From a virus (taxonomy: Duplodnaviria > Heunggongvirae > Uroviricota > Caudoviricetes), in IMG/VR virus record IMGVR_UViG_2698536403_000004: 6,450 bases of DNA. One strand, written 5' to 3'. This document shows, piece after piece, positions 2,091-6,450 of this stretch (position 1 is its first letter; the number at the start of each line of letters is the position of its first letter). The notes below the pieces were generated by a model, which saw only the letters and a list, made by a program, of their open reading frames with translations, did no database searches and was not told the origin of the DNA. Made by a program: the position numbers and the translations under genes.

Positions 2091-2195
2091 GTTCTTACGC
2101 CTCGGGCTGGCTACTTAACCCCTGACCACTGCCTGGTAACTCGAAGTATTGCCCTGCATTCTGTGGGGCGGGGTGGGTTGGTATGAAAAGAAGGA

Positions 2196-2232
2196 TACCC
2201 ATAGGTATTTAAAAAGTAAATACCCATGGGTA
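2196..2232. promoter_or_regulatory. Candidate oL/pL: 16-bp-arm palindrome TACCCATAGGTATTTA-aaaag-TAAATACCCATGGGTA (15/16 symmetric) overlapping a possible leftward promoter
   Basis: Palindrome read directly; on the minus strand TTTACT, a 17-nt spacer and TATCCT fit a -35/-10 pair; the arms contain the same TGGGTATT/TAGGTATT motif seen at oR. Confidence 0.45.
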
Positions 2233-2274
2233 ACTTTTTGCGGTGTCTTAACTGGTGACTAGTTGTTTGGTGAG

Positions 2275-2694
2275 CTATGATGCGTTTTGTGCTTTCTTTT
2301 TACGGATTTCTTCGTAGATCATATTGTAATACTGTTTTTTCTCTTCAAGAGTTTTTAATAAGTTATCCGCTTCACTTTCTGGCAGTTCGTCTAAGAGATC
2401 TAAAAAAATACGTTGTCGTGGCGTTAGAACCCTTGTTTCATAACTGGAGGCTGTGTTCGTTGATGATGAAACGATACCATCCATCCATCCCCGGGGTAAC
2501 CCAAAGGACTCTTCGATAATCTCCACCATATCATCAGCGATCCGTTTTTTTCCCTTTTTCCCCTCTGGGTACAACATTCTTGATACATAAGAAGGCTCGC
2601 GCCCGATCTTTCTGGCCACGTTAACCGCTTTACCATCGCATTTCTCATCACGAATTTTGATGAGTTGCTGTCGTCTAAATTCATATTTGTCCAT
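2275..2694 (-). CDS. Prophage repressor, short HTH type (139 aa; CI/RacR-like role), no C-terminal peptidase domain
   Basis: Divergent from a Cro-like gene across an operator-rich spacer; HTH-like segment GKAVNVARKIGREPSYVSRMLY; length too short for an S24 peptidase domain. No SD upstream of the ATG and a TATTAT hexamer 5-10 nt upstream suggest a leaderless mRNA. Confidence 0.7.
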   Translation of the reverse strand: MDKYEFRRQQLIKIRDEKCDGKAVNVARKIGREPSYVSRMLYPEGKKGKKRIADDMVEIIEESFGLPRGWMDGIVSSSTNTASSYETRVLTPRQRIFLDLLDELPESEADNLLKTLEEKKQYYNMIYEEIRKKKAQNAS

Positions 2695-2722
2695 AGGTAA
2701 ATAATAGATGCGATTACTGCAA

Positions 2723-2770
2723 GGTAAACAACCTGTGGGTATTGACTTTTGTTTACCTGTGGGTATTCTT
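2723..2770. promoter_or_regulatory. Candidate oR/pR: two exact 13-bp direct repeats ACCTGTGGGTATT (2731..2743, 2755..2767) plus an 8-bp inverted repeat GGTAAACA/TGTTTACC (2723..2730, 2750..2757), overlapping -35 TTGACT (2742..2747) and -10 TATTCT (2764..2769)
   Basis: Repeats and hexamers read directly; 16-bp spacer; AAGGAG RBS at 2783..2788 precedes the ATG at 2795 of the Cro-like gene. Confidence 0.55.
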
Positions 2771-2794: not shown

Positions 2795-3076
2795 ATGGAA
2801 GAATTAAGAATATTTCTCAATTCTCTTTCGTCAGATGAACAGCGTATGTTTGCATGCGAGTGTGGTACCAGCATCGGTTATCTAAGAAAGGCATTGAGTA
2901 AAGGTCAAGTGTTAGGGGCATCGTTATGTGTCCTTATTGAGCGAGCCAGTAATGGTGAAGTTACACGTCAGCAACTAAGGCCTTTTGATTGGATGAATAT
3001 TTGGCCCGAGCTGGAAGATACCAAAACGTTAACACAACCACTTTCTAGGAGCTTGATTCATGAAAATCAAGCATGA
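2795..3076 (+). CDS. ydaS: Cro-like HTH regulator of the YdaS type (93 aa)
   Basis: AAGGAG 6 nt upstream of ATG; divergent from the repressor; protein pattern ...CGTSIGYLRKALSKGQ...IERASNGEVTRQQLRPFDW resembles the YdaS/Cro-like family as I remember it; not verified by search. Confidence 0.55.
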   Translation: MEELRIFLNSLSSDEQRMFACECGTSIGYLRKALSKGQVLGASLCVLIERASNGEVTRQQLRPFDWMNIWPELEDTKTLTQPLSRSLIHENQA

Positions 3077-3485
3077 ACACATCCGCATGGCGATGAATGC
3101 CTGGGCGCGTCCTGATGGCGAAAAAGTTCCAGCAGCTGGAATAACCCAGGCTTATTTTGAGTTGGGTATAACGTTTCCTGAACTGTATGACGACAGCCAT
3201 CCGGAAGCCCTGGCTCGCAATACACAGAAAATTTTCCGCTGGGTAGAGAAAGACACCCCTGATGCTGTTGAAAAAATTCAGGCGTTGTTACCAGCGATCG
3301 AAAAGGCAATGCCACCTTTGCTGGTGGCCCGAATGCGCAGCCACAGTTCAGCCTATTTTCGGGAGCTGGTGGAGACGCGGGAACGACTGGTGAGAGACGC
3401 TGATGATTTTGTCGCAGTGGCGATTGCCGGTTTCAATCAGATGAACCGTGGTGGCCCTGCAGGAAATGCCGTGGTGATGCACTAA
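3060..3485 (+). CDS. ydaT: YdaT-like protein (141 aa), in the cII-equivalent position
   Basis: AGGAG 8 nt upstream of ATG at 3060; overlaps the preceding gene by 17 nt; N-terminus MKIKHEHI matches my recollection of YdaT family proteins; follows the Cro-like gene as in Rac-type prophages. Confidence 0.5.
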   Translation: MKIKHEHIRMAMNAWARPDGEKVPAAGITQAYFELGITFPELYDDSHPEALARNTQKIFRWVEKDTPDAVEKIQALLPAIEKAMPPLLVARMRSHSSAYFRELVETRERLVRDADDFVAVAIAGFNQMNRGGPAGNAVVMH

Positions 3486-3719: not shown

Positions 3720-4115
3720 TTATGGCATCGGGAGGCCGTTTTTCTCCCGATATCGCTCGATCTCTGCCTGAATTGCTGCAACAGCACACATGGAGTCGTA
3801 CTGGATCAGTCTGAGATTTTCAATCGTGAATTTGTCTTCCTCCATCAGGTTGAGCATACGAAAGTATCGAAAGACGTAAACTTCTGGGCCGCTGACACCA
3901 TACCCCTTTGCCTTCGATATGGTTTGGTGGAGCTCCCATTCTTTCAATGCGAGGGTGAGAGCCATTTCTCTTATTTTTGCTCTGGCTTCAGCAGCCCGGC
4001 GTTGCGCTTCAATGGTTCGTTCCGATTTGCGTTGCCAGGCACCATTAACCAGCGAAACCACGCCAGCAACACACGCACTCAACACAACGCTACTTGTGAT
4101 AGTTGCAAAATCCAT
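3720..4115 (-). CDS. Membrane-anchored protein (131 aa): N-terminal TM helix followed by a basic, helical cytoplasmic domain; moron-like, function unknown
   Basis: ATG at 4115 with GAGGAGG 6 nt upstream; TATAAT (complement of 4155..4160) upstream on the minus strand; product MDFATITSSVVLSACVAGVVSLVNGAWQRKSERTIEAQRRAAEARAK...; positive residues after the TM place the C-domain in the cytoplasm. Confidence 0.65.
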   Translation of the reverse strand: MDFATITSSVVLSACVAGVVSLVNGAWQRKSERTIEAQRRAAEARAKIREMALTLALKEWELHQTISKAKGYGVSGPEVYVFRYFRMLNLMEEDKFTIENLRLIQYDSMCAVAAIQAEIERYREKNGLPMP

Positions 4116-4194
4116 TTCGAACCTCCTCTGGTTCTGTTGATTAGTGAATCACAGATTATAACCAGAGGAAGGTTTGGCTCCAGACGAGGTGAAC
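4116..4194. promoter_or_regulatory. Divergent promoter/RBS region between the moron and the replication gene, with an imperfect inverted repeat (4121..4133 vs 4160..4173)
   Basis: Minus strand: TATAAT then GAGGAGG then ATG. Plus strand: possible TGTTGA -35 and TATAAC -10, then GAGG 5 nt before ATG 4195. CCTCTGGT / ACCAGAGG form an exact 8-bp inverted repeat. Confidence 0.4.
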
Positions 4195-5280
4195 ATGCGT
4201 GATTATGCAAAAGTTTCCCCGCGATTCTGGCTGGGAGAAACGGGGAGAGAACTTAGAAAGGCGGGTGCAGAAGCGCAAGTTGTTGCTTTTTACCTGATGA
4301 CATCCCCTCACGCAAATATGTTGGGTTTGTATTACCTGCCAGTTTTGTACCTTGCTCATGAAACCGGGCTTGGTCCGGAAGGGGCTTCGAAGGGGCTTAA
4401 AAGGGCTGTTGAAGCTGGTTTTTGTAGCTATGACCATGATGCCGAGATGGTCTGGGTCCATGAAATGGCAGCCTGGCAGGTTGGGGAAACGTTGAAGCCT
4501 GGAGATAACCGTTGTGCAGGTGTCAGGAATGAGTATGCATCATTACCTGAAAACGCCTTTCTGTCAGCCTTTTACGACAGATATAAAACGGATTTCCATC
4601 TGGATGTGAGGCGGAATAATCGCCGGAATTCAGCAAGGGGCTTCGAAGAGGCTTTAAAGGGGCTTCTAAGCCAAGAACAGGAACAGGAGAAAGAACAGGA
4701 GCAGGATAAAAATACTATGCTTCATGGCGAAAAAATCGCCACGAACCAGGCAGGGGATGTTCAGAACGTCAATCCTGGTCAGCCAGCAGGCACGACACCG
4801 GAAGCCGATTCGGGCGCTGTGCAGCAGGCGATGACCGCAAGGCCGGAACAATCACACCAACTGCAGCAGCCTGAAGCCGATTCCGCCATTCAGCGGGAAG
4901 CCGATCAGGTAGTCCCGGAAAACACCGGGCAGCCTGTGGGACGAGTGGATTATCCGGATGTGTTCGAACAGGTCTGGCGGGAATACCCGTTGCGTGCCGG
5001 AGCAAACCCGAAGAAATCCGCTTTCAGTGCCTGGAAGGCCAGATTACGCGAGGGGGTGCCACCAGAGGCCATGCTGGATGGCGTGAGGCGTTACGCAAGA
5101 TACCTGGCGACTACCGGGAAAACGGGAACGGAATTTGTTCAGCGAGCGACGACGTTTTTTGGACCGGACCGGAATTTTGAAAACCCCTGGTTGCTCCCGG
5201 TAAGCGGCACGAACAACCAGCGTTGTGTGAATCATGTTTCTGAACCGGATACCGAAATTCCGCCAGGCTTCAGGGGGTAA
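4195..5280 (+). CDS. Putative replication initiation / replisome-organiser-type protein (361 aa; YdaU/O-position analogue), with a low-complexity acidic Q/E-rich linker
   Basis: ATG at 4195 with GAGG 5 nt upstream (in-frame TTG at 4174 is an alternative); sits where O-type genes lie; C-terminal segment DYPDVFEQVWREYPLRAGANPKKSAFSAWKARL...FFGPDRNFENPW resembles conserved phage replication-protein C-terminal domains as I remember them; unverified. Confidence 0.55.
   Translation: MRDYAKVSPRFWLGETGRELRKAGAEAQVVAFYLMTSPHANMLGLYYLPVLYLAHETGLGPEGASKGLKRAVEAGFCSYDHDAEMVWVHEMAAWQVGETLKPGDNRCAGVRNEYASLPENAFLSAFYDRYKTDFHLDVRRNNRRNSARGFEEALKGLLSQEQEQEKEQEQDKNTMLHGEKIATNQAGDVQNVNPGQPAGTTPEADSGAVQQAMTARPEQSHQLQQPEADSAIQREADQVVPENTGQPVGRVDYPDVFEQVWREYPLRAGANPKKSAFSAWKARLREGVPPEAMLDGVRRYARYLATTGKTGTEFVQRATTFFGPDRNFENPWLLPVSGTNNQRCVNHVSEPDTEIPPGFRG
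4379..4666. repeat. Short direct repeats inside the replication gene: AAGGGGCTT at 4379, 4390, 4635 and 4657, including an exact 14-mer AAGGGGCTTCGAAG at 4379..4392 and 4635..4648
   Basis: Read directly; two pairs about 250 bp apart; further repeats GAACAGGA x3 (4675..4700) and GAAGCCGAT x3 (about 4801, 4874, 4898) lie in the linker. Confidence 0.6.
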
Positions 5281-6245: not shown

Positions 6246-6450
6246 GTAAGCGTGCAGCAAGAACCGTATTGACGGGGATGTGTTATTCAGTCGGCAGTGC
6301 TACGCGCCAGGGGAGCAGTTCGCCGACCCGGCGTTACGGTCGTCACGAACGTAGGTCCATAACCGCCCGGTCTTCGTTTTCTTATTGCCTGGCAACAGCA
6401 CCGGGACAGGCGTGTCATCAGCATGGAGCTTACCGTCAGTCAGCACATAG
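6246..6450 (-). mobile_element. IS66-family insertion sequence remnant: terminal GTAAGCG end at 6246 and an internally deleted transposase; continues past the window
   Basis: Minus-strand translation gives ...HADDTPVPVLLPGNKKTKTGRLWTYVRDDRNAGS, matching the middle of IS66-type transposases as I remember them, then jumps in another frame to a C-terminal-like tail ...ELLPWRVALPTE-stop; the plus strand carries GTAAGCGTGCAGCAAGAACCGTATTGACGG at 6246, consistent with the 5'-GTAA terminal repeat of this family. Confidence 0.55.
6283..6449 (-). pseudogene. IS66-family transposase fragment with a large internal deletion and frameshift (junction near 6315..6327)
   Basis: N-terminal/middle homology ends after RDDRNAGS (about 6324); the C-terminal tail is read in a different frame (6286..6327) and ends at the stop 6283..6285. 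Confidence 0.5.

Follow-up and report, generated by a model that had tools for sequence, protein, structure and literature searches.

Organization of the Locus

The window, by which we mean the whole stretch of 6,450 nucleotides that was analyzed, belongs, judging by its sequence, to a lambdoid prophage of the Qin/Tritos-like type. On its minus strand, at 2275..2694, it carries an open reading frame with an ATG start, encoding a protein of 139 residues followed by a stop codon, which is taken to be the prophage's counterpart of CI. No other start codon lies between the preceding in-frame stop and the ATG, and the related proteins align from residue 1. The protein is assessed as a real, conserved gene product. 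A match to phrog_5736 ("transcriptional regulator") extends along the entire protein (E 4e-70), whose 99%-identical cluster comprises 543 member sequences. The 1-kb immunity region is covered to at least 80%, with identity of up to 99.9%, in 822 of the 5,426 complete genomes of E. coli, one of which is that of CFT073. Some copies of the gene have a frameshift in an A7 run. In RefSeq the repressor is labeled as "hypothetical protein", and no exact copy is present among the isolated phages of the INPHARED collection, where the best match is 65% identical and limited to the N-terminal domain.

The gene fills the cI/dicA slot, flanked on one side by the leftward ydfA-dicF-dicB operon and on the other by a divergent cro/YdaS-like gene. 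The order exo-ydfD-dicB-DicF-ydfC-ydfB-ydfA, repressor, divergent cro/YdaS, YdaT, and replisome organiser matches the layout found around dicA in Qin and around CI in phage Tritos. The Cro analogue (2795..3076, plus strand) is a YdaS-like protein of 93 residues, matched by phrog_35 (E 5e-23) and, below the cut-off, by PF15943 (E 9e-6), and it is preceded by a canonical Shine-Dalgarno (SD) sequence, AGGAG at 2785–2789, located 5 nt before the ATG. The CII analogue (3060..3485, plus strand) consists of 141 residues and belongs to the YdaT family (PF06254; phrog_163, "CII-like"), with matches to PDB entry 3c4r (E 2e-87) and to YdaT of CP-933P (8bt1, E 1e-79).

The DNA-Binding Domain at the N Terminus, and the Linker

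The presence of an N-terminal helix-turn-helix (HTH), proposed in the initial annotation, is borne out by both the AlphaFold model and homology. Residues 1–75 (2470..2694, minus strand) form a predicted four-helix DNA-binding domain, with helices comprising residues 3–18, 23–30, 34–41, and 54–63 (pLDDT about 86–91) and with the HTH located at residues 23–41. Residues 1–86 are 65% identical to the N terminus of mEp043 cI, and the identity to the N termini of repressors of 221–242 residues that carry PF00717 reaches at most 82%. No Pfam model covering this domain was found. The motifs of the mEp043-cI-type family, namely the MDKYE... start, SYVSRMLYPEGK, and LPRGWMD, are all present in alignments A1 and A2, and the domain is classified by its sequence as a member of that DNA-binding domain family, represented here by a set of 25 genome loci. 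It is followed by a Ser/Thr-rich linker (residues 76–87; 2434..2469, minus strand), variable in alignments A1 and A3 and predicted to be disordered, with pLDDT below 50 for residues 77–87.

The C-Terminal Module and the Absence of a Peptidase

Residues 88–139 (2278..2433, minus strand; LTPRQRIFLDLLDELPESEAD...KKQYYNMIYEEI) form, according to the AlphaFold2 model and to homology, a DicA-type two-helix module, in which helix 92–103 is followed by a turn and by the long helix 106–138 (pLDDT 84–92). The region had been described as a short acidic tail. The C terminus is indeed short and does include an acidic patch (residues 99–118, net charge −7), whereas in place of a simple acidic tail there is a folded module that is neutral overall, its 10 acidic residues balanced by 10 basic ones, and that ends with a basic segment (residues 119–139, net charge +4).

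The protein had also been considered too short to contain a RecA-cleavable peptidase domain, and this view is upheld by three kinds of evidence. Neither PF00717 nor any other Pfam domain matches the repressor at E ≤ 0.1, although relatives of its N-terminal domain that are 221–242 residues long do carry PF00717 (Peptidase_S24). The AlphaFold2 model is all-α, with two helices at the C terminus and no β structure, and neither an Ala-Gly nor a Cys-Gly cleavage dipeptide is found anywhere in the protein. A peptidase fold with a Ser-Lys dyad, searched for in the C-terminal region, was likewise not found. We infer that the repressor resists cleavage via RecA.

Sequence similarity to DicA is confined to residues 89–134, with 33% identity between the C-terminal module and residues 84–129 of DicA (BLASTP, E 1e-7). 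With the C terminus of Tritos CI, whose likeness to the repressor lies mainly in this region, the module shares 72% identity. Positions 81–131 of the NCBIfam DicA model also match the module, with a score of 23.9 bits where the cut-off is 101. In the Gifsy-2 repressor, residues 87–112 can be aligned with the module by hhalign over approximately 26 residues, with weak significance (E 5e-5, probability 67%), and BLASTP of the repressor against the Gifsy-2 protein (E 0.001) involves only helix 1 and the LPExE turn. Besides DicA and Tritos CI, a further 40 representative proteins have the module, joined to HTH domains that are unrelated, and in all HTH proteins found to carry it (117–216 residues) it is placed at the C-terminal end. 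Of 35 proteins, 27 combine it with HTH_3, four with Phage_CI_repr, and none with S24, and its identity amounts to 50–57% across short forms from Escherichia, Salmonella, Yersinia, Serratia, and Arsenophonus. These homologues come from an exhaustive HMMER search, as a word-index search with the module alone yielded nothing beyond fragments of the repressor itself. Searches of Pfam and of the PDB, including a profile search of the latter, gave no sequence match for the module, and a search of the PDB with the whole repressor sequence gave no significant match.

By sequence comparison, the module occupies the place of the S24 autopeptidase/oligomerisation domain seen in other members of the mEp043-cI family. 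The amphipathic helices of the monomer model suggest that dimerisation or oligomerisation may be supplied by this module.

Promoters and Operators

Seven matches to the operator motif were found in the window, a number reached in none of 200 shuffles of it. Three predicted operators occupy the region that separates the repressor gene from its divergent neighbor. OR1 (TTACCTGTGGGTAT, 2753..2766) conforms to TACC-N4-GGTA and is located at −71 from the repressor ATG, a position (−71 to −75) kept in 22 of 24 family loci. OR2 (CAACCTGTGGGTAT, 2729..2742), found by the same motif search at the conserved position −47/−48, shares with OR1 an exact 13-nt direct repeat. OR3 (TTACTGCAAGGTAA, 2714..2727) is a TACC-N4-GGTA-like site with one mismatch in the core, positioned at −32; an equivalent site is found at −32/−33 in 20 of the 24 family loci, or in 21 if one at −35 is counted. 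The spacing of the three sites (24/15 bp) is identical in mEp043. A possible fourth site, covering the start codon (2687–2700), was considered and dropped in favor of the positionally conserved OR3.

The promoter scan identified a PR-like promoter for the cro/YdaS-like gene (2742..2769, plus strand), consisting of TTGACT, a 16-nt spacer, and TATTCT. OR1 overlaps the spacer and the −10 element of this promoter, and the last base of OR2 is the first base of its −35 element. On the other side of the repressor gene, a PL-like promoter for the ydfA-ydfB-ydfC-dicF-dicB-ydfD operon was read from the sequence (2192..2220, minus strand), with the −35 element TTTACT (2220→2215), a 17-nt spacer, and the −10 element TATCCT (2197→2192). 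It scores 8/12, under the threshold of the scan, and its layout is like that of PR, with a −35 element, an operator in the spacer, and TATyCT. The predicted operator OL1 (ATACCCATAGGTAT, 2195..2208), a near-perfect palindrome with zero mismatches to the operator consensus, overlaps its −10 element and spacer, and OL2 (ATACCCATGGGTAA, 2220..2233), predicted from repeats and the motif search, lies 25 bp from OL1. Near-identity to phage Tritos resumes approximately 20 nt downstream of the PL-like −10 element.

The PRM-like promoter of the repressor gene itself (2701..2728, minus strand) was found in the promoter scan and comprises the −35 element TTTACC (2728→2723), a 16-nt spacer, and the −10 element TATTAT (2706→2701), in agreement with the proposal of the initial annotation that a −10 element abuts the ATG. 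OR2 is located just upstream of its −35 element, and OR3 covers that element together with the spacer. With TATTAT ending 6 nt before the ATG, the predicted start of transcription (2694) coincides with the A of the ATG, and by calculated geometry the center of OR2 is at −41.5 from this start. No SD-like tetramer is present in the 20 nt upstream of the ATG. In 22 of the 25 related loci a TAnnnT hexamer ends 6–7 nt before the ATG (1.0 expected), and ten different −10 hexamers are found among them, which indicates that it is the position that is conserved, and not the sequence. This geometry, together with the experiments by which both PaaR2 and lambda cI were found to be leaderless (PMC8630535), supports in silico the further proposal of a leaderless mRNA, and the PRM transcript is inferred to start at the A of AUG.

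A predicted YdaT operator, OM (TTGATTCATGAAAATCAA, 3053..3070), located by a motif match, corresponds exactly to TTGATT-N6-AATCAA (0.03 matches expected), a motif described together with PRE933P (PMC9986795, PMC8630535). OM would mark a PRE-like promoter and predicts a second, leadered transcript, made during establishment and running leftward into the repressor gene. Since this second transcript is implied by the operator, a leadered mRNA on its own would not argue against a leaderless PRM transcript.

Comparison with Other Repressors

The repressor has the features of the short, non-cleavable lambdoid class described by Lemire in 2011 (Gifsy GfoR/GtgR, DicA, RacR; PMC3121763), that is, about 130–150 residues, an N-terminal HTH, the cI position, and no cleavage motif, and by its sequence it is assigned to that class. 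DicA of the K-12 Qin prophage (135 residues) resides in the same slot, with ydfA-ydfB-ydfC-dicF-dicB downstream and a cro analogue transcribed divergently, falls into the same size class, and has a homologous C-terminal module. Both proteins are chimeras of an HTH domain and a C terminus unrelated to a peptidase; in DicA, the N terminus is 59% identical to that of P22 C2 and the C terminus is unrelated to the peptidase domain of C2 (PMC3441716), and no Ala-Gly bond is present (PMC10448788). The operators of the two systems are different, however, and no Rem homologue is found near the repressor described here. Because the score of 23.9 bits falls short of the cut-off of 101 of the NCBIfam DicA model (PRK09706), the repressor is regarded, on sequence criteria, as sharing the C-terminal module with DicA without being its orthologue.

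PaaR2 of CP-933P (E. coli O157:H7), which was compared by genetic context and by the homology of YdaT and OM, is also a short CI analogue in the cI/dicA position, divergent from ydaS-ydaT. Its mRNA is leaderless according to 5′ RACE and N-terminal sequencing, and YdaT activates a PRE-like promoter (PMC8630535). The YdaT proteins of the window and of CP-933P are closely homologous, and the operator is the same in both. Unlike the repressor of the window, which is followed by ydfA through dicB, PaaR2 heads a toxin-antitoxin operon (paaA2-parE2), and its operators are 18-bp palindromes of the GTTTAGTAA type (PMC8630535) and not TACC-N4-GGTA sites.

The Gifsy repressors of Salmonella (GfoR, GfhR, GftR/GtgR) are similar in length (~136–138 residues) and uncleaved (PMC3121763). 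The Gifsy-2 repressor resembles the present one in having an HTH, an acidic linker, and two C-terminal helices, with the signature LLxLFxxLPExE common to both. In contrast, the Gifsy antirepressors are LexA-controlled, and no LexA box was found in the window or in the CFT073 prophage.

The DNA-binding domains of mEp043 cI and of the "LexA family" repressors of 221–242 residues are 65–82% identical to that of the present protein over residues 1–75/86. Their genes also have the three operators, at −72, −47, and −32 from the ATG, and the same geometry between the −10 element and the ATG. These relatives carry Peptidase_S24 (PF00717) and are presumably RecA-cleavable, whereas a DicA-type module is present here instead. 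The structure most similar to the repressor model in the PDB is that of Rep, solved in complex with its antirepressor (Rep chain of the Rep–Ant complex from a temperate phage of Salmonella, 5d50; also 5d4z), which likewise consists of an HTH and a helical C-terminal region. The match is weak (E 7.7e-4, TM 0.46/0.38, rmsd 16 Å, 16% identity), with no similarity found at the sequence level.

A Model of the Switch and Its Alternatives

Taken together, the protein is quite probably a CI-type repressor that maintains lysogeny of a Qin/Tritos-type prophage, composed of an mEp043-cI-type HTH domain, a linker, and a DicA-type module, and operating the following switch. Dimers of the repressor would bind OR1/OR2 and OL1/OL2, turning off PR and PL. 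The dimer bound at OR2 would stimulate PRM, OR3 would limit it, and PRM would yield the leaderless maintenance mRNA, while a YdaT-activated PRE-like promoter would provide the second, leadered mRNA at establishment. As RecA-mediated cleavage is not expected to be possible, derepression would need either an antirepressor, as for DicA with Rem and for the Gifsy repressors with GfoA/GftA, or repressor loss, stochastic or stress-related, with a Cro-type lock setting in afterwards.

Induction by a mechanism other than cleavage, suggested in the initial annotation, gains support by analogy with characterized relatives, from which the route for the present repressor would be extrapolated. The Gifsy repressors are inactivated, uncleaved, by small antirepressors that are poorly conserved and able to act in trans from other prophages (PMC3121763). 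DicA is relieved by Rem, an antirepressor encoded in Qin, and its switching can also occur spontaneously or be brought about by urea or heat (PMC10448788). PaaR2, which is without a peptidase motif, is unresponsive to mitomycin C (PMC8630535). The possibility of an antirepressor of the Rem type in cis was rejected, as neither BLASTP nor tblastn with K-12 Rem gave a match in the window, in the CFT073 prophage, in Tritos, or in mEp043. A protein of 92 residues (phrog_1212), located in the rem position between hokD and the DUF968 gene, was discarded as a replacement because it has no similarity to Rem, co-occurs with Rem in phage mEp460_ev081, and is widespread, being found in Gifsy-2 and in many lambdoid nin regions. 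The genes of the CFT073 prophage and of the window all lack a canonical upstream LexA box; the sole exact match to CTGT-N8-ACAG lies inside the tape-measure gene, and scans allowing one mismatch or using the 20-mer gave only coding or weak sites. The CFT073 prophage does carry a Rha/Ant-like gene that matches families of anti-repressors. The repressor of the "pr" phage of Nissle 1917 (Bury 2018, PMC5987069) is not the product of this gene, as the primers used for its cloning have no match in the near-identical CFT073 prophage. A search of the literature on the inducibility of phage Tritos and of the CFT073 potB prophage found nothing usable.

The negative searches bear on a possible, if doubtful, version of the switch in which a repressor of the same identity operates with no dedicated antirepressor, and instability, host proteolysis, or heat and urea, combined with the Cro lock, create a bistable switch blind to the SOS response. 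The absence of both a Rem homologue and a LexA box in cis is what would be expected from such a switch, and there are precedents in the Rem-independent spontaneous, urea, and heat switching of DicA, which needs DicC (PMC10448788), and in the bistability of PaaR2/YdaS (PMC8630535). Yet antirepressors that are small, poorly conserved, and trans-acting (PMC3121763) make a failed search weak evidence, the Rha/Ant-like gene of the CFT073 prophage is a point against this version, and functional phages with the same C-terminal module (Tritos and the vB_EcoS phages) presumably require a reliable trigger. As to the maintenance transcript, an upstream promoter, PRE-like or another one in the cro region, could make it leadered, with SD-less translation achieved by some other mechanism. 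The poor −35 element of PRM, a promoter scan that gave 2 sites compared with 1.6 in shuffles, the leftward promoter implied by the YdaT operator, and an Orbus relative that has a clear SD and no −10 hexamer of this placement would all fit such a transcript, which we nevertheless consider unlikely in view of the fixed placement of ten different hexamers in 22 of the 25 loci, the missing SD, the alignment of relatives from the first available start codon, and the leaderless PaaR2 and lambda cI mRNAs in the same genetic position.

That the short protein is a remnant of a decayed S24-type cI, its last 52 residues being meaningless read-through, is very improbable and largely refuted. Most relatives of the N-terminal domain are indeed proteins of 221–242 residues with S24, and the A7-run frameshift in some copies points in the same direction, but the module is conserved at 50–57% in short forms from five genera, is common to DicA, Tritos CI, and 40 other representatives, and is confidently predicted to form two helices, and the same 139-residue product occurs in hundreds of genomes.

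Returning to the CI-type repressor with a DicA-type module, we can tentatively speculate that the latter is a portable substitute for S24 on a switch whose other features are those of the S24 type, serving in oligomerisation and possibly also providing a docking surface or the lability by which the switch responds to signals other than RecA, with induction by an antirepressor acting in trans from another prophage or by a non-SOS trigger. Such a reading would retain the three operators, the spacing, and the leaderless PRM of the S24-type switch, and it would render one of the commonest types of prophage immunity in E. coli (about 15% of complete genomes) SOS-blind.

Implications

The class of the repressor, its control by antirepressors, and leaderless expression have already been published, the class since 2011, with the Gifsy repressors, DicA/Rem, and PaaR2 as precedents, and the current understanding is not overturned. 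A repressor labeled as a "hypothetical protein" would control both the cell-division inhibitors dicB/DicF and the lytic genes in a prophage family present in approximately one-seventh of the sequenced E. coli, including a copy in CFT073, a model uropathogen. The class assignment predicts that DNA damage is not a direct inducer and points to a missing antirepressor or to a non-SOS trigger. The comparison also provides a clear natural case of domain exchange, in which one DNA-binding domain, operator layout, and leaderless promoter are combined either with S24 or with a helical module of 52 residues, and it may help to determine what S24 adds besides cleavage.

Fold of the Repressor and Absence of a Peptidase

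The open reading frame at 2275–2694 on the minus strand encodes a repressor of 139 residues, exactly as proposed in the initial annotation, and the gene is real, matching phrog_5736 over its full length (E 4e-70); its cluster, 99% identical to the repressor, has 543 members. The AlphaFold model (mean pLDDT 81) starts with a four-helix N-terminal domain (residues 3–18, 23–30, 34–41, and 54–63), followed by a linker disordered in the model (77–87) and by two C-terminal helices (92–103 and 106–138). The structure that matches this model best, although weakly, is the repressor chain of the Salmonella phage Rep–Ant complex (5d50, E 7.7e-4, TM 0.46). No β structure is present in the model, no Pfam family matches the protein at E ≤ 0.1, and neither Ala-Gly nor Cys-Gly occurs in its sequence. 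The identity of an S24 repressor is therefore ruled out, in agreement with the earlier claim that the peptidase is missing, and no Ser-Lys peptidase fold is found in the C-terminus. The description of this part as an acidic tail holds only for the patch of residues 99–118 (net −7), which belongs to a folded module with a basic end (119–139, net +4); residues 88–139 are neutral overall.

A homopolymer is located at 2545–2551 (T7 on the plus strand, A7 in the gene), within the GGGAAAAAAACGG run encoding Gly48-Lys-Lys-Arg51. At least three independent assemblies (CP041550, CP089254, and JAWPZY010000003) have A8 instead, which frameshifts the repressor after approximately residue 50, and gene callers report a 135–136-residue hybrid starting with MNLDD. 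Either a sequencing error in the homopolymer or a genuine hotspot of inactivation could explain the A8 form.

Mosaic Architecture

The repressor is a mosaic, the halves of which have different relatives. The N-terminus of cI of phage mEp043 (228 residues) is 65% identical to residues 1–~75, and the N-termini of many 221–242-residue enterobacterial "LexA family" repressors with Peptidase_S24 are up to 82% identical to the DNA-binding N-domain, with no alignment past residue ~86. The two-helix C-module (residues 88–139), in turn, aligns with residues 84–129 of DicA (33% identity, E 1e-7) and is matched by positions 81–131 of the NCBIfam DicA model, the score of which (23.9 vs. 101 bits) rules out a DicA orthologue. 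The C-terminus of the CI of phage Tritos, a protein with a different N-domain, is 72% identical to the C-module, and the Gifsy-2 repressor matches its first helix and LPExE turn (hhalign E 5e-5). An exhaustive HMMER search with the C-module found 42 representative proteins of 117–216 residues, in which it always forms the C-terminal end. Their N-terminal HTH varies (HTH_3 in 27 of 35, Phage_CI_repr in 4), and none has S24 alongside the C-module. No Pfam model exists for this module, and no solved relative is detectable by sequence. DicA is the same kind of chimera, since its 70 N-terminal residues are 59% identical to the DNA-binding domain of P22 C2, whereas its C-terminus has no relationship to the peptidase domain of C2 (PMC3441716).

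Organization of the Immunity Region

The window corresponds to the early region of a Qin/Tritos-type lambdoid prophage. The minus strand carries an exonuclease fragment, ydfD, dicB, the DicF sRNA (1083–1134; Rfam RF00039, 75 bits), ydfC, ydfB, and ydfA/DUF1391, followed by the repressor gene. Divergent from it, on the plus strand, are a Cro/YdaS-like gene (2795–3076), a YdaT/CII-like gene (3060–3485), a phage replisome organiser (4174–5280), and a DUF977 gene. The arrangement is the same for dicA in K-12 Qin and for the "CI repressor" gene of the isolated phage Tritos. As dicB and ydfD (532–1013) lie together with DicF downstream in a PL-type operon, the repressor, like DicA, presumably governs cell-division inhibitors. 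Aligned with Tritos DNA, the window diverges in the immunity cassette and returns to near-identity ~20 nt downstream of the PL −10, which is classical lambdoid mosaicism.

The 1-kb immunity region is found in 822 of 5,426 complete E. coli genomes, with identity of up to 99.9%. Among the carriers is the complete CFT073 prophage next to potB, in which the repressor gene is annotated "hypothetical protein". The YdaT/CII-like gene and the replisome organiser are separated by an inserted 131-residue gene (3720–4115, minus strand), which matches PD-Lambda-6, a single-gene anti-phage defence system, over its full length (PADLOC PDLC04020, E 9e-90; phrog_36733). This stretch is present in only 17 of the 5,426 genomes, and the CFT073 and MLI107 versions of the prophage lack it. 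Likeness to other E. coli prophages ends at about 6248, and the right end (6287–6450, minus strand) contains open reading frame fragments (e.g., ...LHADDTPVPVLLPGNKKTKTGRLWTYVRDDR...) which may belong to an IS66-family transposase.

Operators and Promoters

A 14-bp motif resembling a palindrome, ATACCCAT(A/G)GGTAT, occurs downstream of the repressor gene (predicted operators OL1, 2195–2208, and OL2, 2220–2233) and between the repressor and cro (OR2, 2729–2742, and OR1, 2753–2766), and nowhere else in the window; this count was reached in none of 200 shuffles. A third site, OR3 (2714–2727), has one core mismatch. In 24 loci sharing the N-domain, S24 and short forms both included, TACC-N4-GGTA lies at fixed distances from the start codon (−72/−73, −47/−48, and −32/−33), the sites of the window being at −71, −47, and −32. 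OR1 overlaps the predicted PR (TTGACT-16-TATTCT, 2742–2769), and OR2 touches it; the PL-like promoter (TTTACT-17-TATCCT, 2220→2192) follows the same plan, OL1 occupying its spacer and −10. OR3 covers the −35 and spacer of PRM (TTTACC-16-TATTAT, 2728→2701), and the center of OR2 is at −41.5 from the predicted PRM start. Lambda CI activates PRM from this position, and by analogy we infer that the repressor would activate PRM from OR2.

Together, the two OL palindromes (2196–2232, minus strand) make up a 16-bp hairpin with a T-rich run after it, called terminator-like in a scan. Since this lies directly 3' of the repressor gene, the pair of operators might double as a terminator of the repressor transcript. 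Between mEp043 (2420–2500 of that phage) and the window (2714–2766), the outer TACC/GGTA half-sites are common and the difference is mainly in the central 4 bp; with DNA-binding domains 65% identical, partial cross-recognition between the two immunity types is conceivable.

Predicted Leaderless and Leadered Transcripts

The −10 of PRM ends at 2701, placing the predicted +1 at 2694, the A of the repressor ATG. No SD-like tetramer precedes this ATG, in contrast to the cro-like gene, which has AGGAG at 2785–2789. A TAnnnT hexamer (at least 4/6 matches) ends 6–7 nt before the ATG in 22 of 25 related loci, with 1.0 expected from shuffles, and the earlier proposal of a leaderless mRNA with the −10 close to the ATG is thereby strengthened. 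As the hexamers of these 22 loci are of ten different kinds and their upstream sequences are all distinct (22), it is position rather than sequence that is conserved. The one clear exception is the Orbus locus, with a canonical SD. In CP-933P, the CI analogue is PaaR2, whose gene is also divergent from ydaS–ydaT; 5' RACE, N-terminal sequencing, and mass spectrometry showed its mRNA to be leaderless, as is that of lambda cI (PMC8630535).

At the cro/ydaT junction, the sequence matches the YdaT operator OM exactly (TTGATT-N6-AATCAA, TTGATTCATGAAAATCAA, 3053–3070; 0.03 expected by chance). The YdaT of the window is closely homologous to its crystallised counterpart from CP-933P (8bt1, E 1e-79) and nearly identical to PDB 3c4r (E 2e-87). 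Since OM in CP-933P marks a YdaT-activated PRE-like promoter yielding an alternative repressor transcript, a leadered establishment transcript would be expected besides the leaderless one.

Route of Induction

The class of short lambdoid repressors without a cleavage motif has been recognised since Lemire et al. 2011. The Gifsy repressors undergo no cleavage and are inactivated by small LexA-controlled antirepressors, and most E. coli genomes were noted to contain homologues, with DicA and RacR named explicitly (PMC3121763). The Qin-encoded antirepressor Rem derepresses DicA 165-fold (PMC10448788). Neither the window nor the CFT073 prophage has a Rem homologue or a convincing LexA box, Tritos also has no Rem homologue, and no isolated phage in INPHARED has this repressor; it is thus only by analogy that, as a non-cleavable protein, it may be induced by an antirepressor. 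In the CFT073 prophage, a Rha/Ant-like gene is flanked by the lysis and terminase genes, a position that suggests late expression. Proteolysis or a bistable route is a serious rival to antirepression. DicA also switches spontaneously or upon exposure to urea or heat, and this switching depends on DicC and not on Rem (PMC10448788). PaaR2, which has no peptidase motif, does not react to mitomycin C (PMC8630535).

The 92-residue protein in the rem slot (phrog_1212; CFT073 prophage 16916–17194, Tritos 38197–38475) was rejected as a Rem counterpart, as it is an ordinary nin-region gene product, co-occurs with Rem elsewhere, and is not similar to it. It is conserved, encoded between hokD and a DUF968 gene, and present in many lambdoid phages, including Gifsy-2; some phage records label it "toxin to Rem".

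Class Membership and Significance

The repressor has the features defining the class and, by its sequence, would work like DicA, PaaR2, and the Gifsy repressors. The protein was previously uncharacterised, and its class is already known. What is new is modest, namely that a single DNA-binding domain, together with its operator layout and leaderless promoter, is naturally combined either with an S24 domain or with a DicA-type module, and that the latter is a widespread, structurally uncharacterised unit.
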